Part shown: in pieces, positions 11,481 to 45,067 of the stretch
How positions within the stretch are numbered: position 1 is the first letter of the stretch
Layout of the letters: every line of letters begins with the position of its first letter
Origin: Nemertoderma westbladi
Taxonomy: Eukaryota; Animalia; Xenacoelomorpha
NCBI GenBank assembly: GCA_032718475.1
Contig: JAUCBJ010008651.1
Coordinates: 1 to 45,067 of the forward strand
Length of the DNA stretch: 45,067 bases
Reading direction: 5' to 3'
Program-made: the position numbers and the translations under genes
Notes under the pieces: generated by a model
Told to the model about the DNA's origin: nothing
What the model saw: the letters and a program-made list of their open reading frames with translations, nothing else
The model's database searches: none

Positions 11481-11636
11481 TTAATCTGTTTCAGTATAAA
11501 CTAGCTCCGATCTAGCACCTAGTGTACCTTTGTAGTTTGCCGATAATTGGAAGCGATCCGCCCCTTGTGAGTGCTGCGGTTTAAAAGAACAGTCGCGGAC
11601 AAGGATAGTATATAGTAGAGACGACTGAATCTTTCG

Positions 11637-16321: not shown

Positions 16322-16664
16322 AGTACAAGTACAAGTATAAGTATAAGTATAAGTATAAGTATAAGTATAAGTATAAGTATAAGTATAAGTATAAGTATAA
16401 GTATAAGTATAAGTATAAGTATAAGTATAAGTATAAGTATAAGTATAAGTATAAGTATAAGTATAAGTATAAGTATAAGTATAAGTATAAGTATAAGTAT
16501 AAGTATAAGTATAAGTATAAGTATAAGTATAAGTATAAGTATAAGTATAAGTATAAGTATAAGTATAAGTATAAGTATAAGTATAAGTATAAGTATAAGT
16601 ATAAGTATAAGTATAAGTATAAGTATAAGTATAAGTATAAGTAATAAGTATAAGTATAAGTAAT
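16322..16664. repeat. Hexanucleotide microsatellite: (A)AGTAC x2 then (AAGTAT)~55
   Basis: Read directly; abuts the 3' end of the CRE element. Confidence 0.97.
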
Positions 16665-22899: not shown

Positions 22900-23025
22900 A
22901 ACCGGTACTTCTGTAGGTCAGTAGGCCCAACTGCCAGAACCGGTACTGCTGTAGGTCCGTAGGTCCAACTGTCAGAACCGGTACTTCTGTAGGTCCGTAG
23001 GCCCAACTGTCCTAACCGGTACTTC
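22900..23025. repeat. 38-bp tandem repeat, 3.3 copies
   Basis: AACCGGTACTTCTGTAGGTCCGTAGGCCCAACTGTCAG-type units start at 22900, 22938, 22976 and 23014. Confidence 0.92.
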
Positions 23026-23199
23026 CAGTATAAGTACATTAGTATTATTCGATTTTTGATTATTGTATACCGGTAGGTCTCGATATTAAATCGGGGACGC
23101 CTGGTTTTTATTGGGATTTTACTTAGGTCTATTTCTGTCAGTTTTATTTCCTAGTAAGTTAATATTGAGCTGAAGACGTGTAAGTCTGCTCAGATTGTT

Positions 23200-23780
23200 C
23201 AGATAACTGTAGGCCGGACTGTTGTCGGATTGTTGTTGAGTTTGGAGAGATTGCGGCGTGTGTAGAGTTTGTCCGATAGAGTGCCAGTTAGTAAGTTGGG
23301 GCAGCCATAGCTGTAAGGTCAATCCCCTCTTAAAGAATAAGTCGTACTACCGTGTTAGAACGCATACTAACTAACCATTTTGGAATCTGCACATACTGTA
23401 GTTTATTTAGGCTTGACAGTATTCTGCCAGCGCTTTGGCCTGTGTTTGTTTGTGTGGTCTGTTCAGGTACCGTAATAGTTATTACTCAGATATTTTGTAG
23501 GCTGGATTGTTGTCTAGCTATTATTAGGTCTGAAGAGATTGCTGCTTGTGTAGAGTTTGTCTGATGAAGTGCCAGTTAGTAAGTTGGGGCAGCCATAGCT
23601 GTAAGGTCAATCCCCTCTTAAAGAATAAGTCGTACTACCGTGTTAGAACGCATACTAACTAACCATTTTGGAATCTGCACATACAGTAGTTTATTTAGGC
23701 TTGGTGGTAGTCTGCCAGCGTTTGGTTTGTATTTTGTTTGAGTATTCTGTACGGGTAGCGTAATATTTATTATTCAGAGT
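23200..23780. repeat. 288-bp tandem duplication within the outer LTR
   Basis: GTGCCAGTTAGTAAGTTGGGGCAGCC...GGAATCTGCACATAC is identical at 23281 and 23569; the flanks are more diverged. Confidence 0.9.
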
Positions 23781-25012
23781 TTATGCGATTATTCGCAACA
23801 TTCATGTCCCCAAGTTTATTCCTACAGTAATTGTGCTTGTTACACATACCGTTATAGTTAAATTAACCCCGGTACTACACGGGCTGCTTGGCGTAGGAAA
23901 AGACTGGTGACTTTGTGCTTCGGTCACTCCAGCAGATGCCGTGGTTCTTTTAACTGTTCAAGTATATTTAACTACTGATTATTTGTTGTACCAGTACTTG
24001 TACCTAATTTAGGGTTTAGTGTACAGTGCTTTCCGAGGGTAATTAGTGTAGGCAGTATATTTGTGTTGTAAAGTGGTTAATAGGCACGTTGGATCTGGTA
24101 GTCCGCGGTAATTAACTTCCAGGTAGGAACACTCCGTGATACATAACGTAGTACCTATAGCGATACGGCTATAGGTCGTCAGGCGGTGGTATTTTCCTAT
24201 CTGGACAGTGCAATATATTTACTACTACTTGTTATTTTCAAATACCGTAGTACCCTGTCCTTTGTAATAACCAGAAATCTAACCCTTTGTTAGGCTGGTT
24301 TGTAGACTTCCTGTAAAATTACCCTAAAAAATTCGTACGTAATATTTTGTTGTGTTTAATTAGAGATTTAATCTCACCCGTATCGTAAGTAATTTGTAGT
24401 ATTAAGTAACTTAGGTAAATTAGAATTATCTGTTTTAGTGTCAAATAAGTAGCACTTCACTGAGAGCGCACAGCTTCTGTGTAGTGACTCCCCCAGAAAT
24501 AATAACATTTATTTCAAATATTGACAAAACCCATTTTAAACGGGTATATAAATATTATAAATCAACTCAAACGATTTATAAATAGTAGGCCTGCCATACA
24601 ACAACTAGGTCTCAATATCAGTTGGACTACTGCTTAAATAACGGTAATAAAGTAAGTTAAAGTAACCAAGTAACCCTAAAATATTCAGAAATTCAATTAT
24701 TCTAAAATAATTGACATACCGGTATTTACCATAGGCTTATTATATTTATTTCTATAAATTTGGGCTGAAATCATACCGGTATTCTGTAATTAATTCTAGT
24801 TCATAATTGTACTTATATATACTATAAGTGTAAGCTGTATACCGGTATTCACGATAGGCCTATTATATATTTATATATATTTGTGCTAAAATTATATACT
24901 GGTACTCTGTGACAAAACTAGTTTACAATACTTATATATATTATAAGTGTATACCGATATTCTAATATACTGTAATAAATTAACGGTACTAGGCCAATGG
25001 TCATACTGAATT

Positions 25013-25017
25013 ACTAG
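25013..25017. other. Target-site duplication ACTAG (left; right copy at 41208-41212)
   Basis: The same 5-mer lies immediately outside both ends of the LTR-bounded element. Confidence 0.9.
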
Positions 25018-26925
25018 TAATTGAAGAGACAGCAACAATACCTGCAATATCCTACTGTAAAGTTTGTGAATCAAATCATAAATCCGACCTTCTCACCAAA
25101 ACAGTAAACTCTAAGTAAGCGAATATATTGCAGTATCGATCTCTTATAACCGGTGAGGCAGAAAACAGTCTACGAGCAGACAAACTTCGATAAAACAAAA
25201 TCCCGCGCAGCGAATCCTAAAATCAGGCTGACTCACTGACGGACTAAGGGGCTCGTATACTTTGCCGCGGTGTGATTTATATGGTTGGGCAAAGGGACGC
25301 TAGCTAGGTACAGAGGCAGAGATTTGGAGATGTCTAACTAGCGAGCAAAGTGCAGTAAGGACGAAAGTTAATTTTATATATTTTGAGGTGTAAATAATTT
25401 CTAACGCGCGTGTGTTAATTCTGAACGGTCAAAAGCAGTTTTGCTCCTTCACATATATAATTACTGGGTACGGTGTGCATTTTACGAATATTCTAATTTT
25501 GTAACTTGTAGGTCTAATACTCACGAATGATAAAGTTCCTTCCCCTCTTGCGTATTTCCAGGACTCAAATTCAGGCATAAGGTTAATACTACGCCCAGAA
25601 TTCGGCAATTTTAGGTACCAGGTCCCTGATACTAAGAAGAGATGTGTTAGTTTACTACTGTAGGCGTACGGGTACTAATAGCTATCCTGGCTCCTATCTA
25701 GAATTTTAGTCACCCAGGTAGTCCGGGTAACTTCCTATTAGGGCGTTGGCGGGGACACGGTAGATGTTAGTATCCCTAATAGCCTCAATTTATTTGCGCC
25801 TAGTGTAAACTGCCCTACCGCCTGAACGGTACAATCCTAATTCAGGTGAAAACACAGCAACCCCCCTAGCCTACAAGTTCTAATGCAATGGACACCGTTG
25901 CACGGCAAATAGTCACAGACGCACCTGTACTTAGCAAGAGTTAAGCGTACAGTTTGCTGCACCCTAACCAATGTGTATGCCTTGTACCGGTGTGCCTACG
26001 TCCTATCTGCGTACTAGTATCTGCCTGCACTCTCCCCCCCCCCCCCCCGTAGGAATATGAAGGTCTACTGCGGTTTTTCCTGAATCAAGACAGTACAGTC
26101 CCTTTTGATGTAATTTTAGGCTTACAGCGTGTCACTACGTCTACCTTTTGATCTTTTGGTCTTATACTTAGGTAGCAAGGATCGAACGCTGTCTAACCTT
26201 TCAGGCGATGGGCGAATAACTCTAAATGGTATTGCGGGTTGTCTCTCGTCTACATTCCCGTGATGTTCCCGTTCATTGCTGCGGCCCGATCTCTAGCCGG
26301 CCATCCTGTCCCTGAGTTTGTTCACCGTAGTGAATCCATAGTAAAACAGATAGAAAAGCTGAGAGAATATTCTGACTTTATTACAGAAGATACAATTATA
26401 ATACAATGTAATCTGAGAATAAACTAAGCACGACAGAATATTGATAAGATAATCTGAGAAAGATTGAGATATAAGATATAGTGTGATAACTAATGAACAA
26501 ATCGCACCTTTATATAGCAAATTTGTGCCGCAATCAATCGAGAAAATTCTCGATTGTTCTATGGGTTCTAACAAGGTTTTAAAGATAGCTATTGGTCCAG
26601 CTAATATATAACTTGCACGACATTGGTTACAATCAAATAACTACAGCCTCATTGGTACAGACAAATGCAATTAATTTGTAGCGGTTAATTTAAATGAGTT
26701 GAAATTCTGCACAAAAAATAATTCGCACTTACTAGGATTCGAACTCAATACCTACTACACATATAATTTCCAACGCTCTACCGACTGAGCTACTGAACCA
26801 CTTGACCGATAGATGTACAAATGATAGAACCAATACGAATGAGAACTTAAAGCAATCTTTACAAAGTTAATCCGAATAAAATAAAATTTTGAAAATCCAC
26901 GGCATTTAGGGAATATAATTCTATA
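25018..26925 (-). repeat. 3' LTR of the inner BEL element (1908 bp)
   Basis: Direct repeat of 39303-41207. By eye there are only two substitutions (26029/40314, 26807/41089) and a C15 versus C12 run. Confidence 0.96.
26713..26799 (-). ncRNA. tRNA-derived Pol III-like cassette in the LTR (3' LTR copy)
   Basis: Minus strand GGTTCAG-TAGCTCAGTCGGTAGAGC (A box, perfect D arm)...GAGTTCGAATCC (B box)...TTTTTT. Acceptor and anticodon stems do not pair. Confidence 0.65.
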
Positions 26926-26935
26926 CCGCTCCACG
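26926..26935 (-). other. Putative short polypurine tract
   Basis: Minus strand CGTGGAGCGG directly precedes the 3' LTR. It is imperfect and the call rests on position. Confidence 0.5.
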
Positions 26936-27550: not shown

Positions 27551-29065
27551 TTATCGCTTAGTTGATCGAGCCCTGCCGCGTCCTCGAAAACTGCGCACAG
27601 GTGACTTTGCTCGCGATATGGGACTAATGGGGCGAGTCACTGGTTTACTTGGGACGTTGAGAGACGGTGCGACTATTTCCTCGCAAATTCGTCTATTTGG
27701 CATCCCAAAACCTCGACCGATTCCTCGTGACCGATCAGTCGTCACTACAGTTGGTAGAACGTCTGGGAACGCGCGAAAGGCGGACGACGCAGACCCAAGA
27801 GTAGCTTGCGCCCCCTGTTGATCAGCTGGTGTATGTCCCGATCCTCCTACTGGTTCTCTTGGAAGTGATACCGTATCCCGAGTAACTCGAATAGTCGGCT
27901 CAACTCCCTTGCGTTCTTCTACATTAATAATTTTCTTTAATTGTTGGCCCACTTTCTGGACCCGTATGATCCTACCCTGTCCGTCCTCCCGAGGGTGACG
28001 TGCAGACGGCGCAACCGGAGTGGCTGGTATATTTGTCGCCTCTAGGACCTCCTCTTCCTCGAATACGCTCGCTCGTATACGTTTATGGTAAAACGCGGCT
28101 CGGTACGCCCATGCGACGGTTAACCAAGCTCCTTTATTCCGTTTTTCAGTTCGGAAACGATCGAATTCACCATACGTAATCCGATTAACGACTTTCTGAA
28201 AATTCCACGTGTTTTTGTTATCCGGGTGAATCTGTAGTAGATACTCGCGCACCACTCGGAATCCACTGTCGTGGGGCAAAATATCGACAACCTCGATAAG
28301 TTCGTCATATTGGGGCATAGCGGAGATATATCCTTCCGACATCATCGTTTGAGGATTTACCGCCCAAAATCCGAGATGCGCCCTCATCGGAAACCGTCTT
28401 CTTTGTGCCGATACATGTTCGTCGGCCAAATCTTCCCACTCATCAAATAACTTCCTCACGAGTTTTACAGATTCATGTTCATAAGGTATGTCCCTTAGTT
28501 GGCATTCAGATGCTCGATGTCCCTTTATATTGCAATAAGTACATTGGGCCATAAATCTCCAGCAAGTATAAAAGGTATGAGACCCTTGATCCCCACACCA
28601 TCCACAGATTAGCTGAGTCGTAGTAATGTGCTTTCCACTGCACTTTGCCATATGATGTCCAGCGACGCCACATTTACTACACATCGTATTGGCAGGGTAC
28701 CACACTCGTTCGTATATAAGATCTCCAATCGGTCGAGCGCTTCCTCCCATACTATAATCGTAATCATCTGGGTCTATGGGTTGGTAGGTTTCTGAAGGTT
28801 GTATACAAACTATAGCATCTGTTGCTTCAAGTTGTCGAATCTCCGTCTGAGATTTCTTCGGGAGGTTCCTTTCTATCTCAAGAAGTTCCTCTAAAGGATC
28901 GTCGGCGATCGTAGTAGTTACTTCGAATTCATCACCAAGGTGACCGATAGGCGCGCGCGTCTGCCGTGATTCATCCGTAATCTCCACGATACGTTCTCCT
29001 TCATAGGGTAACAATGTAAACATAGATGGTCTTTCGATAAGAGATCCCGCACAGCGAAGATACAC
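27551..29065 (-). CDS. Extra ORF in the env position with three CCHC zinc knuckles; function unknown
   Basis: 504 open codons (first ATG at 29023). Contains CSKCGVAGHHMAKC, CGWCGDQGSHTFYTC, CTYCNIKGHRASEC and a basic RG-rich C-terminus. No obvious signal peptide or TM segment. Confidence 0.8.
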   Translation of the reverse strand: MYLRCAGSLIERPSMFTLLPYEGERIVEITDESRQTRAPIGHLGDEFEVTTTIADDPLEELLEIERNLPKKSQTEIRQLEATDAIVCIQPSETYQPIDPDDYDYSMGGSARPIGDLIYERVWYPANTMCSKCGVAGHHMAKCSGKHITTTQLICGWCGDQGSHTFYTCWRFMAQCTYCNIKGHRASECQLRDIPYEHESVKLVRKLFDEWEDLADEHVSAQRRRFPMRAHLGFWAVNPQTMMSEGYISAMPQYDELIEVVDILPHDSGFRVVREYLLQIHPDNKNTWNFQKVVNRITYGEFDRFRTEKRNKGAWLTVAWAYRAAFYHKRIRASVFEEEEVLEATNIPATPVAPSARHPREDGQGRIIRVQKVGQQLKKIINVEERKGVEPTIRVTRDTVSLPREPVGGSGHTPADQQGAQATLGSASSAFRAFPDVLPTVVTTDRSRGIGRGFGMPNRRICEEIVAPSLNVPSKPVTRPISPISRAKSPVRSFRGRGRARSTKR

Positions 29066-29253
29066 GTCTCGAAATATACTAAATCCTGCTCGAGTAAAGG
29101 CATTGCTGTCTTTGCGAGCTTCGCTGTACTTTCTGATAATTCCTTTATACCAAATATAGTGTAGTCCTTGGCTCCAAATCTTTCGAATGGCGCTGCTGCC
29201 TCCTCTTGGATATCATATCCCCATCTCGGCTCTCTTTGTATCCCTTTCTCCAT
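28918..29253 (-). CDS. Small ORF overlapping the start of the zinc-knuckle ORF (separate protein or frameshifted N-terminus)
   Basis: ATG at 29253, MEKGIQREPRWGYD..., 111 aa, coding-like composition, no recognisable motif. Confidence 0.35.
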   Translation of the reverse strand: MEKGIQREPRWGYDIQEEAAAPFERFGAKDYTIFGIKELSESTAKLAKTAMPLLEQDLVYFETCIFAVRDLLSKDHLCLHCYPMKENVSWRLRMNHGRRARLSVTLVMNSK

Positions 29254-29914: not shown

Positions 29915-32900
29915 TTATTTACTAGTATTAGGTGGAGATTTGTAGTCTCCAGACTCGTTACGAGTCTCTTCAAGAAGTACGAGACGTTGAGTCGGTCTGT
30001 CTACTGTTCGACCGTCAATTGTCCGTACTGTCACAGTCCTTGTCACTCCATCCATAGATGGATGTGTGGCTAAAATTACACCTGTTATCCAGAAGCGTCT
30101 TTTTAGATTCACTTCCGCTAACAGCACGTGATCTCCCGGCTTTAATGCGCGGGTGTTATTGTACCAGTTTGTTCTGGCAGAAATAGAGGGCAAATAATGG
30201 TTTTGCCATATTTCCCAGAATTTGTTAGCTAGTACTTGCGTGATTTTCCACGCTTTTCTACCGTAGCTGTCGCTTTCTATTGGAATAGAAATCGGCGTCA
30301 AAGTAGTCGGTGCCTGCATAAGCAGGTGTGCCGGTGTCAAAGCGAACTGAGATTGTTTGTCATCGGGTACTAATACTATTGGTCTAGTATTTAGTATTGC
30401 CTCGATTTCAACAAACAATGTTGTCAGTTGGTCGTCTGTCAGTATGTGGTTTACTGGAATGACCTTTGCCATGGCTGTCTTTATAGATCTAATCAATCTC
30501 TCCCAGACTCCGCCTCTCCAAGGACTATCTGGAGGATTAAACTTCCAAACAATCTTGTGAGGTTGCAGTTCGTTCGAGATTTGATCATGATCTAATTTCT
30601 TAAAGGCTCTAGCAATCTCATTCCGAGCACCAACAAAGTTTGTCCCTTGGTCTGAGTACAAGCATTTTACTAGTCCGCGTCTAGCGATAAATCGCCGCAG
30701 TGCTAGTATAAACGCGTTGGTGGAAAGATCCATCACACGTTCAATGTGAACTGCCCTACTGGACATACATGTGAAAATCAGTCCCCAGCGTTTTACTAGT
30801 ATACGTCCACGTTTCGTATGGATTGGACCAAAGCAATCAATTCCAGTCTCTGTAAAAGGTGGTCTGAATGCTTGAAGTCGTGCTTGTGGTAGTTCACTCA
30901 TTTCCTGGGTACCTATTCTAGAATGTACCTTTTTACAAATAATACACGTACGTGTCACTGAACTTAACGCTTTACTGGGTCTAATTTATACAAATCTAGT
31001 ACGTAAGTAGGAAAGACAGTGGTGTCTTCCAGCGTGTTTCAGATGTAAATGTGCGTCCAGTATCATTGCACGTTGTAGTTCGTGATGTTGCGGTATTATT
31101 ATTGGGTACCTAAAGTTTGTGTTAAAGTCAATGTTTTGAAGCCGAGATTTATGACAAATTAAGCCATTATAAATAATCGGACTCCAACTCAGTATTGGTG
31201 ACGACTTGATTGGTTGACCTTGATGTATAGATGTGAATTCGCGCGCGAAATATCGCAGTTGGTAATGGCGAATTAATTTAATCTCACACCTGTCAATCTC
31301 AGCCAATGTAAGTCGACGTGTAAAGTCATGTTTGCCTTTTACGTATTGTACAAAACGTACAATCCACGCTAACTTTCGGCAAGCGTTTGACCAAGAGTCT
31401 GTTAAGTTTACAATACGATCGACGTGAGTATTTGTGACGTCATCAGGTAAGTCAATGGAGATTTTGGAAGGTTTTGAATTACTAGAAGGGCCCACGGGTC
31501 CGCCGGTAGGTATTCCCTTGTTGACTGTTGATCCGTCCGGGTCTACAAGTAATTTGTCCTTCTTTGTCTTCTTACCTTGATTGTCGGTACTTTGTAAGTC
31601 GATCGTTAATGGTGGTTTGAACTCTATGGGGTCAGCAGGTTTTGGTAAGCTTAATTTTCTGCCGACATTAATCCCAGGTTTCACCATAGGTTGTAAGTTC
31701 GGTATGTCTCTTGAGCGCAGAGTAACACCTGTATTTACATTAGCGTAGGTACTACCCACATCTGTAATACATGAGGTTTCACCGTGCTTATGGTTGCTCA
31801 AGTGTGTCAAAATTGGTAGTTTGTCAATACAAGGCCGCTCCAATAGGGAAACTGCGGCTTTACTGTTAGTCAATACATTACTAATGTCCGGTAGAACATT
31901 TTGTGATGTTTCTGACAAAATGTCTAGTCGACTGTCTAGTAATGTGTCTGGCGATACGTCTGGTAACGTATCTGGTTGTTTGTCAATAGAAGGCCGCTCC
32001 AATAGGGAAACTGCGGCTTTACTGTTTGTCAGTGTGTTACTAGCGTCTGGTAGAATGTCTGGTTGACCGTCTGGTAACGTGTCTGGTTGACCGTCTGGCG
32101 ATATGTCTGGTGTAGAAAGGCTCGCAAGTCTTCCTCTCTTGACCTTTGAAGTTATATCTTTCCATTTCGCCTTCGGTTTCTTCTTGAGTTTCGCCGCCGT
32201 CGTCTTTTTCTTTGTCTTCCCCTTTTTTGGTTTCTTGATTTCGGCGTCCTTAGGGATAGTATTAGATTTGTTGTCGTATAACGGAGGCCAATCTTGTGTC
32301 GATTTCTGCAAGAATTGGGGTCCGTGTTGCCAAAATTCTTTGTTCTCCGGTTTACAGAATTCCTCAGGCATCATTCCTCGCGACGCAATATCGGCTGGGT
32401 TTTGTGGTCCGGGACAATGTCGCCAATCCTCTTTTATTGAACGGTCTAGAATTTCCGCGCGACGGTTAGCTACGAATGTCTTGAATTCGAGTGTGTCGTT
32501 GTTTATGTAAAATAAAACCAACGTCGCGTCAGTCCAATAAAATATCTGTAAACTCGACTGTAGTTCTGTCTGTATGAGGTTCACGATGGTGGTTGACAGG
32601 GTTGCGGCTTGTAGCTCGGCTCGTGGTGTCGTCATATACTTAGTAGGCATGGTCTTAGCCTTAGAAGTAATGAGCGAAACATCGAACTCGTCTGATTCTA
32701 CTTGTCTGCGCAAGTACGCTGCCACACCAAAACCGTTGTCACTGGCGTCAGAAAAACAGTGTAGTTCCAAGTTGTCAGGAAATGTACTTTGTAATGGAAA
32801 GTAAACCCTGGGTATGGAATAATCCTCTAGCGAAGATAATTCTGCCTCCCAGGTCTTCCATAAGTCCACTTGGTCTGATGAGATCGGCTCGTCCCATGTT

Positions 32901-35900
32901 AGTCCATCCTTCCATATACTGCGCATATAAATGCGGGCTTGCAGTATCACTGGACTGATGAATCCTAACGGATCGAACAATCGGCTCAACTTTGACAAGC
33001 ATTATCTCTTTGTCAGTGTGTTCTCTTGACTGTCCAGTCTCACTTTCACTCGAAAGTTGTCTGTGTTTGGGTCCCAAAAGAGCCCCAACACCTTAGTCGT
33101 CGGTAGTGGTTCGAACTCTAGGTCTATGTCACCACCTCCACGCTCAGTCGTCCCGAATGAGTCTACTAATTCGGCACTGTTTGAGGCGAATTTGGTGAGG
33201 TTAAAACCTCCGCTCGCTAAGCAGTCCCGTAATTGATGTGCTACTGTTGTAGCACGTTCTACTGTGTCGCAACTCTGTAAACCGTCGTCTACATAAAAGT
33301 CACGCTCCACAATCCTAATTATCTCTGGGTCATATAGGTGTTTCTGATCTCTAGCGGCTTGTTTTAGGGCGTACATCGTGCAATTTGGGCTGTCTCTGGC
33401 ACCGAAAACGCGAACTTGCATTTGGTAAGTCGCCGGTGGTAGACTTAAGTCTCCTTCCGGGTACCAGAGGAACCGCAAACTGTCTCTGTCTCGCTCTAAC
33501 GCTTTCACTTGGTGAAACATCGCTTCAACGTCGCAAGTAAAAGCTACTTGACGCTGACGGAAGCGCATAATCACCCCCATAAGATAATTATTCATGTTTG
33601 GTCCATCCATCAACTCACTATTGAGGGACATTCCCTCAAATAGAGCCGCACAATCATTGACTACGCGTACTTTATCTGGTTTGTCGGGATGTCTCACATA
33701 GTGATGTGGCAGGTAGTATGTCTGGTTAGTCACTATCTCTGGGTTAGTCATTCGGATAGCGTATCCCTTAGTCAAATACGTCTCCATCTGAGTGTTGTAC
33801 TGCAGATGGGCCTTCTCGTCCTTTAATAGACGTTGCCGTATTGAGTGTAGACGTCTCAAGGCTAGTGGATAGTTGTTTATAAGTTTAGGACTTTGGCTAC
33901 GCCATAACATCCCTACCTCATAATGTCCGTCTTTCGTCTGGTGGATAGTATCTTCCATGATCTTCAGAGATTGTTTCTCCTGTTCCGACATACAAGGTTC
34001 GTAGCTACCAGGTTCAGCTGTATCTTGTTCTAACCACCTGATAGTCTTCTCCGTTAATTCCTTGTCTAGTACAGCTTGTTCCAACTGATGATTTCTCAAC
34101 GCGTCATCATCGATCTCGACGGGCACTGTTGAGGTTATTGGGGTAGGTAGACTCGCAAGCCTATCATCTGTCGTCGATGGAATCTCTAGCTGACTCGTCT
34201 TCTCCCCAAGTTCTAGACTCACCTGGTGAATTAGCTGCTCCTTGTGACTTATCATACTAGTTACACGTCTGTTATGTTTTGTCGACTGTAGTGTAGTATG
34301 GTTCACGTCATGTGAGAAGGAATGAATTGAATTTGTAGTTAATAAACTACATGTACTCTGTACATCGTCTTCCTCGTCACTTACGTCTAGTGTGCGCACA
34401 GGCGCTCGAGTATACCACCCTATCGGCATTCTGCAGGCGTATGCGTTTCCCGCTACAACTGCCGATGGTCTGGTTTCCCACACCTGATGTAGGTTGAATT
34501 GGTCCGTCCCGATCAGCATTGCTACCGATCTATAATTGACAGGACATTCGGGTACACCAAGGTGTCTGAAATACTTACGGTCCTCTAGAGATTGTTCCGG
34601 CACTGGACCTAGTAGGTTACTAAAGTCCTTCGTGGCCGCAAAGGTTAGATCTCTAAAGGGTAACAAAGACCTCTCCCTCTCGCTGTGTTGCGATTTTGGA
34701 AGAAGAGAGTCTAAGTTTAACTTGACTCGTGTCACTGGTATTGCACGCTGTCCGTGCATACTACTTACGGTATAACTGACGCGCTTACCTTGTTTAAGAT
34801 CCGTCACTACGTCAGCTATCTTTTCATCCACGTAGCTATGAGATGAGGCTGAATCTAGAATCGCATAGATCCTCTTGCTCCCCTTTGTGCCAGTAACCTT
34901 AATCGGAATTACACTGAATCCCTTCAGTTGGTCAGTAGTCAGAAGCGCGATCGACGGTTGTTCGTCTCCATTGGAATATTCGTCGTCGTCTTCTAACTCT
35001 TCGTCCGACGATCCGGATTGTTCTGAGAAGCAATCCTCAATATGGGTCACGAAGGTTGGAGTCGTTTTCGATTCTCGTTTTCGGTAGGCCGCATCACATC
35101 TCGCTGCTGCTTCCGGGTGTTCCCTGGCGAAGCGTTTCGTCGGCGTGTGGCTGTCTGTGTGGAGCAGACCGTCGTGGTTGCGTCCACAGGATGGACAAGT
35201 GTCGGTATTTGGGCAATCTTTACGGACATGTCCGTGTCGCGTACACCGCCAACAAGAGTCCAATGGCCGTATTTGCAGCCGTCGTTCTTCCGAGTTCAAC
35301 TCGCGAAATTGTCGACAACCTCGTAACTTGTGACCAATATACCGCTTGCCTAGATGCTCGCAGTATTGGCAGCCGCTGAAGTCGGTACTAAGTTGTTGTC
35401 TCGTCTGTTTTGTCCCAATGGGCGCAGATACCCTACTACCGTCCGAGAATTGTCGTGATTCCGTCGGTGTGGCGTAAGTGGCCGTCTTAGTGGATGTTGT
35501 TTGGGGTTTTTGTCGGTTGGAGGATGGCAATGTGATTCCTTCTGCCACGATGTGCTGGTCGGTGTAGTTAGATCTAGTTTCTACTACTGCCTCCCTGGAT
35601 ATTAAAAGGTACACATCTTCTAATTTTAAGAATCCTCCCCGCTCTTCTCGCTGGTATTCGACCTTCCTCCACTCCCGACGAAGTCGATGGTGGAGTCGTC
35701 CTATGATCTTTAATAGGACTGTAGGGGTATTCCCGTAATCAAGTTGTCCAATGGATCTTAAGGTAGTGATAGCGTTCTTGATCTCGTCAGCTAGTTTTAA
35801 TAAGTCGACGGGTTTAGTGATAGCCCCCTCCCTTACAGAGTTCCTCTATTACTGACCTGGCCATGCTCACTGTACCTCCGTATATCGAAGTTAAACGATC

Positions 35901-38495
35901 GTACGCTAGTTCGAAGGCGTCCGGTACACCAACGAAGGTCTCTGCCAAACGTTTAGGTTCTCCTGACAACGTTTGAAGCAGGTAATTGAACTTCTCCCGT
36001 GATGTAAAGGCGCACACGGCGATCTGGGATTCGATATAGTCTACGAAAGTATGCCAGTGTTTTGAGCTACCGGAAAACTTCGGTGGTTGTTGTACCGGCA
36101 ATCCCTGTCTGGCTGCGAATTTCGCTATCTCCTCGGCAACGTTCAGAGTTTCGCGTCCTTGGTTGGTAACTTGGTTGATATCCCTTCTTGGCGCTTTTCC
36201 CTGATACGATGTGGGGTTTGAAGGTACCGGTCTTTGTGGTTCCTTCGGGTGTCTATTGTGTTCGAATTCGGAATTTCTCGAACTGTCGGTGTAACCTTCC
36301 TCCAGACGTTCCTCGATCTGAGCCAACTTGTTAACAACTGGTCGCAGGATGTCGGCGAACTGTTGTGTACTAATTGCGTCCGTTGGTTGTAACGCCTTCT
36401 GTGTTGGTGTATTCTGTGGAGGATTGTCTGCAAAGGAGTTGTCTGAACGCTCGCGTTTGTATTCATCGGCCGCCCCTGTTCTAAATACCTCGCGTTTCGG
36501 GTAATCCGATTCGCTCGAAGTACTACTATCATCTGGATATGGTGGTCGACGTGCTCGCGTCCGTTGCGTCGTTCGAATTCTAACGTTCCGTTTCGGAACA
36601 TCGTCCACTGATCTCCGTTGTTCGGTAGGCTCACAAGTCTTCCTCGAAGTCGTAGATTGCGATGTAAATTGGTTGAACGGTCGCGTAGACACTGTTCTCC
36701 GTTGTTCGGTAGGCTCACAAGTCTTCCTCGAAGTCGTAGATTGCGATGTAAACTGAATCGGTGGGCGAATGACAGCATTTGAAACAACTGGCCTTGAAGG
36801 TCGAAACGTCATTGGGTAAGCGTAGTGTGTAACGGGTTTAGGTGTCGACGGTGGACTCACCTGTTTTGTCGTCAGTAATACAGGTTCGACTAATAAACTA
36901 CTACGATCTGTAATCGGTGGGTTACTTACCTTGACTTTCGGAATAGGCGACGACGTTGCTCTTGGCGGTGTAAACTCGTCCGGAATAACAAACCTGTGTT
37001 CCGTCGCACCATGGATAGGAGAAATGTTACTACTACCCGCAATCGAAACAGGTTCCTTAGTCGTAACCGGTGCAAACATATGAGTTACCTGTGGGAATCG
37101 TTGACACAAGTCCTTTACTAATTGTCGTTCCCGTCCGGGTGCTCCTACGCTTCCTTCCTTCTTTCGTTCCTGAATTTGGCGATGTCTTACCTCTATCTGG
37201 TCCAAGTCATGTCCGTCTCGAGATCTCATCGATCGATCGCGGGCTTGTAGATCCAGATCTTCCTTGGCGTTGGCTAATTCTCTCGCCTTCCTCCCGAGTT
37301 CGAAATGAAGTTTAACTTCCTTCTCGCGTTGTTCCGTTTGTTGTTGTTGCGCCTCGAACTCTGCTTGTCGTATAGCTGACTGAGCCTTTATTTGCCGTTT
37401 TTTCATCTCAGCTCTCGCTTCTGATACTAACCTCTGTCGCTCTAATTCAGCCGCTGCCGTTCGTTGCGCTAACTCGGCCGCTGCTGCTTGTTGGGCGATG
37501 TCCAACTCCAACCTTTCCATCTCGGCCGCTTCCAACTCGGCTTGTTCTTGCAGATGAGAGATTCTTGCAACATTCGCAACACGTAGTTTTTCTTCTTCTA
37601 CCGCCGCTTGTGCCGTCAACAATTGAGCTTGTTCCTCCGCTTCCCGTTGTTGTCTATCATGTTGTTGTTGCTGTCTGGAAATTTCTGACGTCACGATACT
37701 TATCTCGCCAATTTCGCTGCGAATACTCACTAACGATTGGTCCAGTATTCCCAGTGCCGATTCGATTTGTGCGAGCGAAGTTTCCCTCGTAGCCTCCGGC
37801 ACGGTTTCCCAATCTCCGACGTCCTCGCCGCACATGCGTAAGTGATCCGTCAGGTGTTTCAATTGTCCATCCAGTCGGTACAGTTCCTGTTCTTCCTCGG
37901 GCTGTAATAATTCGTCCGAAACTGACTCACCTAACAACTGGTCCGCTTGTTCCTGTTGTATGTGTCTAATCGTCGACTTAAACTGAATCAGTTTCTCTCT
38001 AGCGATCATTAGTTTCTCGAGGATTCTAAGTTGAGTATCCATGTCCTGTCTCTGTCTAGCTAGATCTTGTAGGCCAACTAGATTATCTACGGACTTATAT
38101 ACTTTACTCTGTACTCTCACCTGGAGGGTGTAGAACTCGAATCGAGACATCGGCGCGGTCAACCCGTCTAATATGCGTTGGCCTTCTCCAATACTCCTGG
38201 TAATATGCGCCATGTAACCGCCGACGCTCCTAACAACGCTTTCCTGACTTCCTGCTGAACTTACCATGTCCGATTCCCTATATCTAGGTTGCGGAACAGT
38301 TAGAAAGTCCTCGGTCCTGCCGTCGCCTCGTACTACGGCATCCGGTACTCCCGGTGGATGTACTGGTGACGCACACGGTGTAGGTTCGGTAGGCTCGCGA
38401 GTCTTCCCCTGTTGTTCTTCCGCTGCTGACTTATCCGCGTCACATGAGTCATAGTCGGTTTGTGTATTTTTCGTATAGTCTTGTTTGTCACTCAT
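29915..38495 (-). pseudogene. BEL gag-pol polyprotein (~2860 codons) with one frameshift and two in-frame TAA stops
   Basis: Gag PPKFSGSSKHW; knuckles CWRCTRHGHVRKDC and CPSCGRNHDGLLH; protease AILDSAS; RT YYLPHH, DVEAMFHQV, FYVDD; RH FDPLG, LHCFSDAS, NPADIASRG; IN GIDCFGP, SDQGTNFVG, GGVWERLIRSIK. An extra base in the run at 35824-35828 and TAA at 33002-33004 and 30986-30988 explain the four ORF-track pieces. Confidence 0.92.
36613..36755 (-). repeat. 84-bp in-frame tandem duplication in gag (QFTSQSTTSRKTCEPTEQRR x2)
   Basis: Visible in both DNA and protein. Confidence 0.9.
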
Positions 38496-39291
38496 TTCGG
38501 TAGTTGTAAGTCAAGTAAAGTGAGTGTCAAAGTATCAAACTTACCGTATTTTATCTAAACGGTACTAATTACAGTCTTATAAAATTAGCCTACCGGCCGA
38601 TTTTATAGCAGATGGATAAAATTAGCCTAAACGGCCAATTTTACAGCAAATAAATGTCACGGAATAAGTATATAATAAAATTAGCCTAGCGGCCAATTTT
38701 ATAACAAATAAATCGGATAACGATATGCGTTATCAAAAGGTAAATTAAATACAATAATACGGACTAATTCAGCAATGAACAAAGAAATCATACGGAATGC
38801 ATAAATACTTGAGACAGTGGAACCCACAATAATTTTAACTAATACGGTAATGCCTAACTTATTTATGCAACTTTTCGAACTCACCCACTCCAATAATTCT
38901 CCAGAAAAACAGATTCCCAGATACAAACCGGACGTGAACCTTTCCGTTTTTAACGTTGCGGACGAAACGCGATTTTCCCAACCAAAGTTGTTGAGTTATC
39001 TATCTCCCAAACTTGCTAAACACGGTCTTGCTCCCGTTACAGTCTAGAAATGAGTTCTGAATCCTGAAAAACAAAAGAGTTAGGTTTTACTTTTCGAAAA
39101 TTTTGTACCGGTACAATATGGTATTTAAACCCTTTTAAACACCGGTATTCAATTCCAAAATATTTTACACGCGGTTCAAATCAAATTTTTATTTCAAAAA
39201 ATTAGCACTTAGCTAATCAAATACAAATTTTTACCTCAAAATACAGAATTTTCAAATAACTTTAGTCCTACCGAACCGTAGTTCAGTAAAA

Positions 39292-39302
39292 CATATTCCT
39301 AC
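39292..39302 (-). other. PBS position of the inner element: GTAGGAATATG, not tRNA-type, complementary to LTR 40331-40341
   Basis: Lacks TGG. Exact reverse complement of an 11-mer in the same LTR on the same strand. Confidence 0.7.
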
Positions 39303-40764
39303 TAATTGAAGAGACAGCAACAATACCTGCAATATCCTACTGTAAAGTTTGTGAATCAAATCATAAATCCGACCTTCTCACCAAAACAGTAAACTCTAAG
39401 TAAGCGAATATATTGCAGTATCGATCTCTTATAACCGGTGAGGCAGAAAACAGTCTACGAGCAGACAAACTTCGATAAAACAAAATCCCGCGCAGCGAAT
39501 CCTAAAATCAGGCTGACTCACTGACGGACTAAGGGGCTCGTATACTTTGCCGCGGTGTGATTTATATGGTTGGGCAAAGGGACGCTAGCTAGGTACAGAG
39601 GCAGAGATTTGGAGATGTCTAACTAGCGAGCAAAGTGCAGTAAGGACGAAAGTTAATTTTATATATTTTGAGGTGTAAATAATTTCTAACGCGCGTGTGT
39701 TAATTCTGAACGGTCAAAAGCAGTTTTGCTCCTTCACATATATAATTACTGGGTACGGTGTGCATTTTACGAATATTCTAATTTTGTAACTTGTAGGTCT
39801 AATACTCACGAATGATAAAGTTCCTTCCCCTCTTGCGTATTTCCAGGACTCAAATTCAGGCATAAGGTTAATACTACGCCCAGAATTCGGCAATTTTAGG
39901 TACCAGGTCCCTGATACTAAGAAGAGATGTGTTAGTTTACTACTGTAGGCGTACGGGTACTAATAGCTATCCTGGCTCCTATCTAGAATTTTAGTCACCC
40001 AGGTAGTCCGGGTAACTTCCTATTAGGGCGTTGGCGGGGACACGGTAGATGTTAGTATCCCTAATAGCCTCAATTTATTTGCGCCTAGTGTAAACTGCCC
40101 TACCGCCTGAACGGTACAATCCTAATTCAGGTGAAAACACAGCAACCCCCCTAGCCTACAAGTTCTAATGCAATGGACACCGTTGCACGGCAAATAGTCA
40201 CAGACGCACCTGTACTTAGCAAGAGTTAAGCGTACAGTTTGCTGCACCCTAACCAATGTGTATGCCTTGTACCGGTGTGCCTACGTCCTATCTGCGTACT
40301 AGTATCTGCCTGCGCTCTCCCCCCCCCCCCGTAGGAATATGAAGGTCTACTGCGGTTTTTCCTGAATCAAGACAGTACAGTCCCTTTTGATGTAATTTTA
40401 GGCTTACAGCGTGTCACTACGTCTACCTTTTGATCTTTTGGTCTTATACTTAGGTAGCAAGGATCGAACGCTGTCTAACCTTTCAGGCGATGGGCGAATA
40501 ACTCTAAATGGTATTGCGGGTTGTCTCTCGTCTACATTCCCGTGATGTTCCCGTTCATTGCTGCGGCCCGATCTCTAGCCGGCCATCCTGTCCCTGAGTT
40601 TGTTCACCGTAGTGAATCCATAGTAAAACAGATAGAAAAGCTGAGAGAATATTCTGACTTTATTACAGAAGATACAATTATAATACAATGTAATCTGAGA
40701 ATAAACTAAGCACGACAGAATATTGATAAGATAATCTGAGAAAGATTGAGATATAAGATATAGT

Positions 40765-40937
40765 GTGATAACTAATGAACAAATCGCACCTTTATATAGC
40801 AAATTTGTGCCGCAATCAATCGAGAAAATTCTCGATTGTTCTATGGGTTCTAACAAGGTTTTAAAGATAGCTATTGGTCCAGCTAATATATAACTTGCAC
40901 GACATTGGTTACAATCAAATAACTACAGCCTCATTGG
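40765..40937 (-). promoter_or_regulatory. Putative Pol II LTR promoter (3 CCAAT boxes, palindrome, TATA)
   Basis: Minus-strand CCAAT at 40933-37, 40904-08 and 40873-77 (~30-bp spacing), inverted repeat CAATCGAGAA-AA-TTCTCGATTG at 40817-40838, TATATAAA at 40791-40798, AATAAA downstream at ~40659-40664. Confidence 0.6.
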
Positions 40938-40994
40938 TACAGACAAATGCAATTAATTTGTAGCGGTTAATTTAAATGAGTTGAAATTCTGCAC

Positions 40995-41081
40995 AAAAAA
41001 TAATTCGCACTTACTAGGATTCGAACTCAATACCTACTACACATATAATTTCCAACGCTCTACCGACTGAGCTACTGAACC
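40995..41081 (-). ncRNA. tRNA-derived Pol III-like cassette in the LTR (5' LTR copy)
   Basis: Same sequence as 26713-26799. Confidence 0.65.
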
Positions 41082-41263
41082 ACTTGACAGATAGATGTAC
41101 AAATGATAGAACCAATACGAATGAGAACTTAAAGCAATCTTTACAAAGTTAATCCGAATAAAATAAAATTTTGAAAATCCACGGCATTTAGGGAATATAA
41201 TTCTATAACTAGACTTGCTTTAACTGTAACTATAGCAGTAAGCATTCAACTGTATAGTTAAAC

Positions 41264-44200
41264 ATGTCTGACACCCAGCAAAACCTGTCAGACAGTCTAA
41301 TTGATACAACCATCTGTGACACAGATAGGAGTGTGGAGCGATTAAGAAAGGAGTTCAGCTCACCTCCTACTGAAAGAAAGGTCATCCCTCCAGTAGTAGT
41401 ATCAGACCCTAAGCTAATCCAACACCGTAGGTCTATCATCGGCACTCGGGCCCAAGTCAAACGGAACCAGGAAGCAGCTGTCCCACAGCAGCAACAGCCT
41501 AGTCAAGAAACTTGTTCCCAGCGATCCGATAGCTCCAGTAATTCGGATACTGTCGAGCTGACCCCCGAACGCGGATTGCAGATGGCGGCTAAAGCCTACT
41601 CGGACCCCCTTCTCACCCTTCCTGCCGCAGTGCTAACTACTATATTGATTGCGGTCGAGGAACATCAAGCCGATTGGGCGAGAAATAAGCGAGCGACCCA
41701 AGATAATTATGCGGAATACGCCAGGGAAGAATTGATGTCTATTGTCGAGTCACAATGGAACTTTCCCGGACCCGGACTCCCGTTAGATCTGTCCGAGGCT
41801 ACTTGGGAAGATATACACAGGATGGGAGTGGCTAAAGATACGATGGATCCAGCTGTTTGGAAGAGGTCGGCAGCAGGATATGTGCAGGGATTCTTCGGCT
41901 CCTTAGAGCGATTAGAAGAACAACTGTTTCGACAACCCCAAGGACCTCAAGAGCAGGAAGAACTGCTATATCAAGTACGCGAAAGAACCCTACGCATTAG
42001 ACTAATCCTATCAGCCTTTGAGGAAACTTCCAAAAGAAGACAGGACACGTCGCTGCAGGTTGCTGTCAAAACTTGGTTCCAGCGGGTAGGTCTCAAAGTA
42101 CAAGAAACAGACCAGTGGAAATCCCAGTTGTCTGAGAGACTAACCTATGACGAACCAACCGATGTCACCCTTCCTCAAGTGGAAGGCGAAGAGACCGCAG
42201 AGAGACCACGAACGAGAGACGCCATCGACATTTATCTGTCCGACTATCAGCGATTCCTAGGAGACGAAGAGTTGAGGAGACGGCTGTCTGGACTTTCCCC
42301 TAATAGTGAAGGAACCCAGCGTGTGTTAGACTCAGTCGATGCTGAAATGTTAGCGGCTAACCAAGCTGAGTTTGATGAAAAACTTCGCCTCACTAGAGTC
42401 CAAGAAGAACTAGTAAAGAAAAAACGGATAGAGGACCGAAAGGCAGCTGCAGTAACAGCGGCAATGGCCGAAGTGGAAGCGGAAAGAAAAGCAGCGGCGG
42501 CAGAAGCAGAAGTAGAAAGAAAAGCAGCAGAAGCAGAAAGAAAGGCAGCGGCGGCAGAAGCAGAAGCAGAAAGAAAAGCAGCAAAGGCAGTGGCAGAAGC
42601 AGAACGGAGAGCCTCTGAGGAGACTACCCAACTGGAGTTGGAAAATCTGCAAGAGACGCAAGACAAAATAAATAAACAGTTAACTGCTAGTCACATGCAG
42701 ATGATGAGAAAATCTACTCCCAAACGCCAGGGATATACGTCATCGGAGGAAAGCGAAACCACCGATCCTGAAGGCGGAGGAAATAGATCTCATCTAAGCA
42801 GGCGTAGAAAAACATCTTACCGTCACAAATTGCCTGATTTGCCTCCAGCTGTTAGAAGACAACTAGCTAGCACAGACTTAAGTAGTATAGAACCTACAGA
42901 CCAAATTATTAAGGTCAAAAAACTTCCTACTATAGTTGATGAGCCTGAAATAATTACGCCTGTCGTTCCCAAAGTCACTCCTGTGTTAGAGACCCCTGTA
43001 CTTCCAGAGCTTAACTCTAAATTCCCTTTACACAGTACTACACTGCCTGTGCCCGGTAGAACAGTCCATGAGAATATCCCTGTCCTGGAAGCTGAGAGAG
43101 AAATCAAAGATTTGTCTCCCGTCGTCCCACGTCAGCCCGCTACAATGTTGGCGACTCCCGCTTCGGCGGTCGAGTGGGTAGAGGAGGGACGGCGGGGGAT
43201 GAATCTCCTGCTCGGACAGATGCAGGAGACTGTCTACCAACTTAAGGGAACAGTAAGGGAAGGTAGGGCCGAATTGCAAGAAGTGCAGCAAAGTATCGCG
43301 CTAGAACGCGACAAATTAGTCAATATCCAAAGGGGAATACCAATACCCCCTGTAAAATTGTGTCAACCTGTTAGGTCTGAAGTATTACATGCGCAAGGTG
43401 TGGAGCCTACACGCATCTATACTGCTAGTGAAGTAGAAACTCCTATAGCAAACCCTATTAAGGGTGATTATAGACCTGTTATTAATGATACCCCTTATAG
43501 ACCTGACAATGATCCGAGAAATTTATATACCGATAATTCGATATTAAATAACACGATGGCCCAAGAAAGCTTTACGCGTCAGATGGCTAGAACAGAAGCC
43601 CGCCAAGCGGTCAAAGTGGGAGAGATCGTCAAATTCAATGGAGATGAGATGAAATGGTTACCTTTCAACGAATATTACAAAGATAGCATACAAAACTCTG
43701 TACTATCTAACGGAGAGAAACTTAGGTTCCTCATCAAGTGCTTGGAAGGACCTCCCAGGTTAATGGCGTTAAAGTTTATTGGACATCCAGAAGGATTAAG
43801 ACAAGTATGGGATACATTAAACATCAGGTATGGTAACAAGGATAACATAGCTAAGTATTTGTATGCAAAATTAGTAGCCCCCCGACACTTCCTTAGTAGC
43901 GGGATTATAGAGTTTTCCGATGAAATTCAGGAGATCTGTAGACAATTGGACTGGTTAGGTAAGTCTCATGAATATCAGAGTTCCATGGTTATTGGAGCAG
44001 TAGTCTCTACTTTACCCAAGGGTGGAGTATGTACACGTTGGGACAAGAAAGTGTTGTACATGAATGAACAACAACGACGAAGCCCTACCATGACTGATCT
44101 CATGTCCTTCTTAGATGGTGAAGTAAAACTACAACTCATCAAGCAGTCCAGAGAGAAAACATCGGAAAATAAGGTAAGTGAGAAACCCGCTTCTAGGAGA

Positions 44201-45067
44201 AGAGTAACACCGGTGTGTTACACTGACGACGGCGAAAGCCAAGCTTCTCAAGAAGAGGACAGCGGGAAAGACACTGAGAGATCTAACTACGTTGAAAAAA
44301 CCTCAAAAGATGTAAGTAAATACAAGGCTCGAAACAACGATAGGAGAGAACAGGTTGCCAAGACCCCTCCTCAGTCTCCTAACAGAATGCACCGAAGAAA
44401 ACCCGAAGAAAAAACGAGAGTGCATCAAGTTACCCAAGGTAAAGTGAGTAACATAAAACCTAACTGTGCGCTGTGCGACGGGACCCACCGTTTGAGTGCG
44501 TGTGCTGAATTTCTAAAGAAATCCCTTGTAGACAGACGTGCAGTCGTGTGGGACAAGCGGTTATGCTATAATTGCCTCAGACCAGGACACCAACGGCGAA
44601 CCTGTTTCTCCGACATAAAGTGTGCAAAGTGTGGCGCGAAACATCACATCTTGTTACACAGTGAGTTCGATCGAGACAAACTGAGTCAGGTAAGTGAGCC
44701 CGAACTACATGTCCAATTCAGTGATGTAAACGACACTGATCAAGAATCTGAGATGGAAGGATTCTATACTGACGAATTCTCCGACGCCAACGAATCCTGT
44801 TATCTAATCAATACCGCAGTGTATCGAGCACTTACTTATGAAAAGGACACCAACAATGAGTTTCCCCCAACTACTTTTGCCAAACAACCATCTTGGAAAG
44901 CTCCAACTTCCAACGTAGGAATCAGAGAATTTCCTGTAGTGCAGGTAAGAGTTCACGGTCTTAACAAAAGTTACATAGTGAACGCCCTCCTTGACTCCGG
45001 CAGCACAGGAACATTCATCGATCAAGAACTAGCCGAAGATATCTTTGCTGGACAACCCAAGTTCCGG
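41264..45067 (+). CDS. Outer BEL gag-protease polyprotein, partial (runs off the window; absent from the ORF track because it has no stop)
   Basis: ATG at 41264 (MSDTQQNL). Spot-checked in the same frame: AEAERKAA coiled-coil repeats, VKFNGDEMKWLPF, CALCDGTHRLSAC, CYNCLRPGHQRRTC, CAKCGAKHHILLH and protease ALLDSGS, ending ...PKFR at 45067. Confidence 0.9.
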   Translation, partial: MSDTQQNLSDSLIDTTICDTDRSVERLRKEFSSPPTERKVIPPVVVSDPKLIQHRRSIIGTRAQVKRNQEAAVPQQQQPSQETCSQRSDSSSNSDTVELTPERGLQMAAKAYSDPLLTLPAAVLTTILIAVEEHQADWARNKRATQDNYAEYAREELMSIVESQWNFPGPGLPLDLSEATWEDIHRMGVAKDTMDPAVWKRSAAGYVQGFFGSLERLEEQLFRQPQGPQEQEELLYQVRERTLRIRLILSAFEETSKRRQDTSLQVAVKTWFQRVGLKVQETDQWKSQLSERLTYDEPTDVTLPQVEGEETAERPRTRDAIDIYLSDYQRFLGDEELRRRLSGLSPNSEGTQRVLDSVDAEMLAANQAEFDEKLRLTRVQEELVKKKRIEDRKAAAVTAAMAEVEAERKAAAAEAEVERKAAEAERKAAAAEAEAERKAAKAVAEAERRASEETTQLELENLQETQDKINKQLTASHMQMMRKSTPKRQGYTSSEESETTDPEGGGNRSHLSRRRKTSYRHKLPDLPPAVRRQLASTDLSSIEPTDQIIKVKKLPTIVDEPEIITPVVPKVTPVLETPVLPELNSKFPLHSTTLPVPGRTVHENIPVLEAEREIKDLSPVVPRQPATMLATPASAVEWVEEGRRGMNLLLGQMQETVYQLKGTVREGRAELQEVQQSIALERDKLVNIQRGIPIPPVKLCQPVRSEVLHAQGVEPTRIYTASEVETPIANPIKGDYRPVINDTPYRPDNDPRNLYTDNSILNNTMAQESFTRQMARTEARQAVKVGEIVKFNGDEMKWLPFNEYYKDSIQNSVLSNGEKLRFLIKCLEGPPRLMALKFIGHPEGLRQVWDTLNIRYGNKDNIAKYLYAKLVAPRHFLSSGIIEFSDEIQEICRQLDWLGKSHEYQSSMVIGAVVSTLPKGGVCTRWDKKVLYMNEQQRRSPTMTDLMSFLDGEVKLQLIKQSREKTSENKVSEKPASRRRVTPVCYTDDGESQASQEEDSGKDTERSNYVEKTSKDVSKYKARNNDRREQVAKTPPQSPNRMHRRKPEEKTRVHQVTQGKVSNIKPNCALCDGTHRLSACAEFLKKSLVDRRAVVWDKRLCYNCLRPGHQRRTCFSDIKCAKCGAKHHILLHSEFDRDKLSQVSEPELHVQFSDVNDTDQESEMEGFYTDEFSDANESCYLINTAVYRALTYEKDTNNEFPPTTFAKQPSWKAPTSNVGIREFPVVQVRVHGLNKSYIVNALLDSGSTGTFIDQELAEDIFAGQPKFR

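Follow-up and report, generated by a model that had tools for sequence, protein, structure and literature searches.

A BEL/Pao retrotransposon of Nemertoderma westbladi with a primer-binding site complementary to its own LTR, a candidate for internal self-priming

The window analyzed here, a stretch of 45,067 nucleotides of Nemertoderma westbladi DNA, contains a 16.2 kb BEL/Pao element on its minus strand. The primer-binding site (PBS) of this element is the exact complement of an 11-nucleotide sequence (11-mer) in its own long terminal repeat (LTR). This complementarity, its register, a matched pair of variants, and the same arrangement in relatives form the basis for the proposal that the element primes reverse transcription by its own RNA in some form, to which a probability of about 0.9 is assigned. 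The arrangement is real and very probably functional. A full internal route in cis, with the primer cut from the same RNA, is considered probable, with less confidence than self-priming as such.

The two LTRs were defined by self-alignment (Table 1) and differ by two substitutions and by three G in the G-run. The element is a young jumping gene. Both LTRs begin with TATAGA and end with CAATTA (minus strand), and contigs of the empty site in public runs have loose ends that break at 41208, as expected. The LTR termini, the CTAGT flanks, and these empty-site contigs establish that the TA...TA ends given in the preliminary description are real. The LTR end, ...CA-ATTA, is flush with the PBS (39303-39307, 41207), while relatives have CA followed by a spacer of 0-4 nucleotides, for example TTA. 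This TA terminus may have arisen when such a spacer was absorbed into the LTR, in which case the integrase would process the ends differently. One related locus (L031, 6973-13998) has TG...TA ends and a 5-bp duplication.

Table 1. Positions of the features of the element within the window.
Feature	Position	Strand	Remark	Basis
5’ LTR	39303..41207	-	1905 nt, TA...TA ends	LTR alignment and boundary check
3’ LTR	25018..26925	-	1908 nt	LTR alignment
Target-site duplication CTAGT, 5’ side	41208..41212	-	5 bp	Boundary check
Target-site duplication CTAGT, 3’ side	25013..25017	-	5 bp	Boundary check
tRNA-like A box, B box, and T6 in U3	40995..41074	-	Same place in 3’ LTR	Motif matches
Promoter block: three CCAAT (40937, 40908, 40877) and TATA (40798-40791)	40791..40937	-		Motif matches
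Upstream AATAAA	40659..40664	-	Missing in some family contigs
Predicted self-primer 3’ end	40331..40341	-	Exact PBS complement; variant 40339 partners 39294
G12-AGAG purine tract past predicted cut	40315..40330	-	Can pair with pyrimidine-rich LTR end
Downstream AATAAA, predicted poly(A) signal	40074..40079	-	251 nt past the 11-mer
U5 end, predicted partner of 40324-40301 (second helix)	39308..39327	-	Weak support
Primer-binding site	39292..39302	-	11 nt, no TGG, variant at 39294
Predicted 11-bp leader hairpin, C(UACG)G loop	39266..39291	-	Abuts PBS; p=0.07 against local windows
gag, first part (DUF1759)	35814..38510	-	Frame break at end
Rest of gag, protease, RT (YVDD), Peptidase_A17/RNase H region, integrase, DUF5641	29915..35845	-
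Extra ORF, 553 codons, three CCHC-like knuckles	27551..29212	-	After integrase
PPT, short purine-rich tract before 3’ LTR	26926..26934	-
11-mer copy in 3’ LTR	26049..26059	-	Followed by G15

The gag-pol region contains one frame break and two in-frame stops (33002-33004 and 30986-30988). Pfam identifies DUF1759, Peptidase_A17, and DUF5641 in the element. A search with the reverse transcriptase (RT) returned 75 proteins at E<=1e-20, the best with 44% identity, nearly all of which carry PF05380. The named matches come from a nemertean, a limpet, tunicates, fishes, a mantis shrimp, and an acoel. Motifs that we take to be the acidic residues of an RNase H are legible in the Peptidase_A17 region of this copy. 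The extra ORF has no Pfam hit and is not envelope-like by Pfam. Its matches in the Atlas score below 0.9 and are to fungal CCHC proteins only, and no counterpart was found in the LTR or in the 79 related loci described below.

According to the ICTV profile of the Belpaoviridae, the PBS is 18 nucleotides long and serves tRNA-Arg or tRNA-Gly, the LTRs measure 0.2-1.2 kb, and the genomes measure 4.2-10 kb (PMC8742986). The element agrees with this metazoan-type family in its gag, its Pao-type RT, the PR-RT-RH-IN order, the Peptidase_A17, DUF1759, and DUF5641 domains, the LTRs with a target-site duplication, and the PPT. It differs in its 1.9 kb LTRs, its total length of 16.2 kb, its zinc-knuckle extra ORF, and the absence of a tRNA PBS, in place of which it carries a PBS that matches its own LTR.

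The PBS, GTAGGAATATG at 39302-39292, lies flush with the 5’ LTR, and there is no TGG in the 102 nucleotides after this LTR. Its exact complement, CATATTCCTAC at 40341-40331, is followed by G12 and stands in the register needed by a primer, with C40331 opposite G39302. These observations repeat those of the preliminary description in full. The chance of about 5e-4 given there is correct for the exact register, where 3 of 5000 dinucleotide-shuffled LTRs reach at least 11 nucleotides at offset 0, but not for offsets 0-5, where 28 of 5000 do so. The chance of an anchored match is 0.0006-0.006. Perfect inverted 11-mers are ordinary when no anchoring is required (four in the 2.7 kb between 41207 and 38500), and the match is therefore notable for its position alone. 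The energy of the 11-mer duplex was likewise equalled in 16 of 60 shuffled LTRs. Four unanchored matches of this kind are what a reading of chance complementarity can call upon. That reading is extremely improbable and is effectively refuted already by three separate tests, namely the anchoring, the covariation of the partners, and the seven of seven relatives described below.

Covariation was examined on contigs from three public runs (X1, X3, and X4, from three studies) that cover 39245-40375 and are at least 90% alike. The element is present in public runs at very high summed depth, and one of the three runs is possibly the source of the window itself. Variants were counted from a share of at least 9%, the shares being of summed contig depth and not allele frequencies. 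There are 22 variant places in the 1131 nucleotides. The sole variant in the PBS, at 39294, accounts for 15987/51673 (31%) in X1, 14573/50764 (29%) in X3, and 19.6/63.2 (31%) in X4. The sole variant in the 11-mer, at 40339, accounts for 20859/95604 (22%) in X1, 29963/121660 (25%) in X3, and 775/775 (100% of one contig) in X4, a thinly covered run whose two shares disagree. The two positions are partners in the helix and change U-A to C-G. The chance that 22 random places include both partners of one of the 11 pairs is 0.004. The variants are unphased, as they lie 1045 nucleotides apart and the contigs are too short. The comparison of the runs thus yielded one unphased compensatory pair within the family, a result in favour of self-priming, and the upholding of the pairing by compensatory change, a mark of Tf1-type priming, is also seen across families.

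In LTR replication, every cycle copies the primer into the PBS, and a host primer would reset it. Covariation is therefore doubly expected under self-priming, from selection and from this copying. Covariation by itself shows pairing and not priming, which suits a reading in which the pairing is real and structural (packaging, translation, or poly(A) control) and the primer is some host RNA or tRNA fragment. A fixed host primer, however, would rewrite the PBS to one sequence per cycle, and the variant makes up about 30% of the depth. The PBS letters also vary freely among the families, always match the LTR of the same element, lie 0-4 nucleotides from the LTR end, and start with GT or AT in nearly all relatives. 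Host priming is for these reasons improbable, and self-priming is preferred.

Related loci were taken from metagenome contigs, with the RT aligned with 22 matches serving as the query. The set comprises 79 loci (L001-L079) from the best 80 of at least 478 confirmed, and their RTs are 36-44% identical to that of the element. Seven loci have LTR ends defined by the repeat on both sides. None of the seven has a TGG in the first 8 nucleotides, and in all seven a stretch of 11-15 nucleotides at offset 0-4 has a complement in the LTR of the same locus, compared with 5 of 2100 control windows drawn from their own internal regions. The complement is contiguous in L052, as in the element of the window. 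In the other six (L017, L030, L031, L036, L053, and L075), the complement forms only when an LTR intron is removed; the donor is of the GTAAG or GTACGT type, the AG acceptor is pyrimidine-rich, and the two are 76-186 nucleotides apart. The preliminary description had named a lack of complementarity in related families as a result that would speak against self-priming; the complementarity is kept there, with entirely different letters.

A scan of all 79 loci gave matches at an LTR-end-like site in 27 (21 spliced and 6 contiguous). These were picked by eye among matches that included chance ones; they represent about 22 lineages once near-identical RTs are merged, and L016 and L076 are the least secure. 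Evident chance matches were also returned by the unanchored scan. Relaxed rules, applied to six further loci, added L005 (13 nucleotides) and L028 (10 nucleotides), while L015, L022, L039, and L067 gave no call even under these rules. No call was made in 50 of the 79 loci, mostly those without an LTR end in the contig.

Two of the loci, L002 and L003, have near-identical RTs, are sisters on the tree, and share an identical 11-mer. The 11-mer is whole in L002 and is split in L003 by a 168-nucleotide intron that is cleanly missing from L002, the ends matching exactly. The L002 sequence may represent either a DNA copy without the intron or assembled spliced RNA, and the junction is real in either case. 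The contiguous and the intron-split form of one 11-mer place the pairing at the RNA level. An intron in the R region whose splicing is needed for the primer is nevertheless kept in both DNA LTRs of L003, L017, L030, L031, L036, L053, L075, and others.

Details were compared in 23 relatives, which are the 27 loci minus four near-duplicates. The PBS starts with GT or AT in 22 of the 23. The corresponding primer ends, AC or AU, probably reflect a preference in cutting. A poly(A) hexamer lies 6-93 nucleotides past the primer in 20 of 23 (a count without a shuffled control). An upstream TATA match is present in eight of 23, at 124-203 nucleotides from the primer in six, at 31 nucleotides in one (L009/L017), and at 491 nucleotides in one. 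These upstream positions suggest that the primer is usually internal. The contiguous form is seen in L052, L002, L041, and L077. None of the 23 relatives has a G-run following the primer; a general role for it is not borne out, and the G-run was rejected as a general cut signal and is family-specific.

The related loci resemble the element of the window in their self-complementary PBS and in the poly(A) hexamer past the primer. Most of them differ in having TG...CA ends, LTRs of 0.4-0.7 kb, an intron-split primer, and no G-run. On the RT tree, the element of the window forms a long branch just outside the clade of these loci (FastTree support 0.84 and 0.93). The tree has 111 rows, with short matches left out and no named BEL/Pao references. 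Inference from the 79 loci to the element therefore rests on relatedness and not identity. By this position, the element belongs to the group as a distant member, one that has the contiguous form. No relatives were found in two scans of viral contigs.

The start of transcription is predicted from the promoter motifs to lie near 40770, about 430 nucleotides before the 11-mer. Both a TATA and an AATAAA upstream of the 11-mer were found, as stated in the preliminary description; the second AATAAA, downstream at 40079, was not part of it. In the proposed route, the RNA would start near 40770 and the genomic RNA would end past the AATAAA at 40079, placing the 11-mer in R, about 430 nucleotides from the cap. 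The 11-mer would fold back on the PBS about 1 kb away, between the predicted leader hairpin and a predicted helix of the G-tract with U5. If Tf1 is a guide, the element’s own RT would use its RNase H to cut after C40331 and release a capped fragment of about 440 nucleotides, the last 11 bases of which would serve as the primer. Minus-strand strong-stop DNA would cover 39303-40330 and jump to the 3’ R, after which U3 and the 11-mer would be copied from the 3’ LTR. The PBS would be rewritten from the primer in every cycle, so that a change in the primer would be carried into the PBS.

This route restricts the position of the poly(A) signal. If the primer is cut in cis, strong-stop DNA is limited to 39303-40330, so the terminal redundancy must pass 40330, which favours the AATAAA at 40079 over that at 40664 as the signal. 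With a genomic RNA that ends at the AATAAA at 40664, cutting in cis could not support strand transfer. The poly(A) hexamer past the primer in 20 of the 23 relatives is what cutting in cis requires. The AATAAA at 40664 does have a U-rich stretch behind it and looks usable as a poly(A) site. It is missing from some family contigs, all at low depth, by a joint of 40640 to 40770 in one X4 contig and by a loose end at 40640 in four X3 contigs.

The self-primer could also come from another molecule or another end. A packaged second RNA, or a short transcript of the LTR with its 3’ end at 40331, would then prime an uncut genome in trans, with R possibly at 40770-40640 and the upstream AATAAA in use, or the 3’ end of the genomic RNA would stop at the 11-mer of the 3’ LTR. 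Such an origin suits the canonical-looking order of CCAAT, TATA, and AATAAA (40937-40664) and explains the covariation equally well, and two RNA species would make it easier for relatives to keep an intron in DNA while the primer needs splicing. The hexamer past the primer in 20 of 23 relatives puts the end of the RNA beyond the primer, however, and the family contigs without the upstream AATAAA, despite their low depth, point the same way. An origin in trans or at the 3’ end is unlikely on this evidence.

A strict Tf1-type arrangement, in which transcription begins at 40341-40340 without a TATA and the RNA thus opens with the 11-mer, is less likely again. The preliminary description had noted a YYANWYY initiator on the 11-mer. 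The match is present at 40342, but is weak evidence because the LTR contains 21 such matches. Also in line with this start are the leader hairpin, which begins exactly at the end of the pairing, the TATA match 31 nucleotides before the primer in L009/L017, and the pairing 5’ of the 11-mer, which is not significant. Against it are the three CCAAT and the TATA 457 nucleotides upstream, the TATA match 124-203 nucleotides upstream in six relatives, and the spliced primers, which require an upstream exon. These last two observations also back the suggestion of the preliminary description that the primer is probably internal, and the internal route in cis remains the preferred reading.

Several other pairings near the PBS were considered. 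The second helix is equalled by 1.2% of LTR windows on the primer side and 8% on the template side (local p=0.06). Relatives lack it (Fisher p=0.99), and it was rejected as a conserved feature. The G-run variant at 40320 improves this helix, and that at 40314 breaks one pair in its lowest-energy register. A longer pairing of the sequence 5’ of the 11-mer with the leader was rejected, since 34% of LTR windows equal it and a local hairpin competes. Pairing of the tRNA-like box in U3 with the leader was among the top duplexes and was not above the null.

Additional features were observed within the LTR. Just upstream of the 11-mer (40407-40362, minus strand) lie a GTAAGC donor and, 46 nucleotides from it, a CAG acceptor rich in pyrimidines; the two possibly bound a small intron that would leave the primer unaltered. 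The tRNA-like boxes in U3 could be a pol III unit or an insulator. ARAGORN found no tRNA anywhere in the window, and Rfam gave three matches at E 3-8 for 39000-41300, none of them relevant. In run X4, the summed depth of 40763-41167 is far above that of the rest of the LTR, as if the promoter block were common to another repeat family. A further run, X5, which may be RNA, is without coverage at 40196-40438, a gap that carries no information. One X4 contig over 39446-40148 has 95 differences in 701 nucleotides, with dense plus-strand T>C (A>G on the sense strand), and resembles a copy in which ADAR-type hyper-editing became fixed. Loose ends at 39294-39314 in X1, X3, and X4 carry a head-to-tail repeat of about 28 nucleotides similar to the end of the LTR followed by PBS bases 1-9; repeated priming or slippage may have produced it.

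The element is inserted in the leader of a second, outer BEL/Pao element on the plus strand, the gag of which begins at 41258. The outer element spans 41258-45067 and about 21700-25012 (both plus strand) and is multi-copy according to the empty-site contigs. Contiguous and spliced scans of it for self-complements gave nothing beyond chance, all matches being AT-rich or unanchored, and its LTR end is not defined in the window. A 9-nucleotide match (21962-21970 with 24127-24135) was rejected as out of register. With no anchored complement above chance, the covarying outer element of the preliminary description was not confirmed. Positions 11619-16190 (plus strand) hold a GC-rich non-LTR RT ORF of 1523 codons, with a 12-nucleotide array before it and a TAAGTA array after it (10428-11515 and 16330-16660). 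From its resemblance, it is presumably a microsatellite-targeting CRE-type element.

Self-priming is known from another superfamily. The Tf1 primer is 11 nucleotides long and is freed by RNase H cleavage of an RNA duplex. In the accessible text of three sources, Tf1/Tf2 of Schizosaccharomyces pombe, Tj1, the Tf1/sushi group, and Tcn1 have a PBS complementary to their own LTR RNA and no tRNA PBS (10.1101/2022.12.06.519325, PMC4600332, PMC6317226). The Tf1 primer is described there as the 5’ end of the RNA in a three-duplex “pretzel”, both flanking duplexes of which join bases adjacent to the PBS to LTR bases past the primer (10.1101/2022.12.06.519325, PMC4600332). The element of the window likewise has no tRNA PBS and has, 0-5 nucleotides after the 5’ LTR, a PBS complementary over at least 10 nucleotides to its own LTR RNA. 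Tf1 is a Ty3/gypsy chromovirus, whereas this element has BEL/Pao domains and no chromodomain hit and falls outside Tf1/sushi. Its primer is predicted to be internal, with promoter motifs about 430 nucleotides upstream, and not the 5’ end of the RNA. The three-duplex pretzel is not reproduced: one flanking duplex is weak and unconserved, and a local hairpin stands in place of the other. Further differences are a loop of about 1 kb, LTRs that end in TA and not CA, and, in most relatives, a primer assembled over a splice junction.

Self-priming has also been predicted for Tcn1 and for the TAR lineage of plant Ty1/copia (Houba, Osr-1), the latter from matches of at least 10 nucleotides located 0-5 nucleotides after the LTR (PMC6317226, accessible text). 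The element shows the same relation of PBS to LTR. The TAR lineage differs in its copia domain order and its plant hosts, and the accessible text describes neither covariation nor splice dependence for it.

An element-encoded primer in the nematode element Cer7 would be a possible precedent, but a literature search on it returned nothing relevant. To our knowledge, the replication of BEL/Pao elements has hardly been studied. No report of BEL/Pao self-priming was found in the literature searched; subscription journals, Repbase reports, or supplements may hold one. The accessible parts of PMC554778 (Sinbad) and PMC3118150 (a BEL/Pao survey) contain no text on a PBS, tRNA, or self-priming, and those of PMC3601003, PMC8220671, and PMC3286476 contain nothing on BEL/Pao priming.

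The odds are judged slightly better than even for the broadest reading, in which a large and old animal branch of BEL/Pao swapped tRNA priming for an internal self-primer. This primer would be the end of a capped 5’ fragment of 100-440 nucleotides cut inside R, with the pairing end assembled by host splicing in most families and contiguous in others that have lost the intron, the element of the window among them. The branch would represent a third self-priming superfamily, after Tf1/sushi-type Ty3/gypsy and one proposed plant copia lineage, with a route unlike that of Tf1. The window contributes a compensatory pair within one family, drawn from read data, a coding element whose R-U5 is very long, and a connection between the contiguous and the spliced forms. 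Under self-priming, minus-strand DNA should be attached to an RNA whose 3’ end lies at 40331, and the two natural alleles of one base pair provide a ready-made control. An internal or splice-made primer, if true, would involve a logic of RNA cutting and strand transfer that is undescribed for Tf1. Self-priming would also explain how such elements escape PBS-based annotation, and it may free them from the supply of tRNA and from defence by tRNA fragments.
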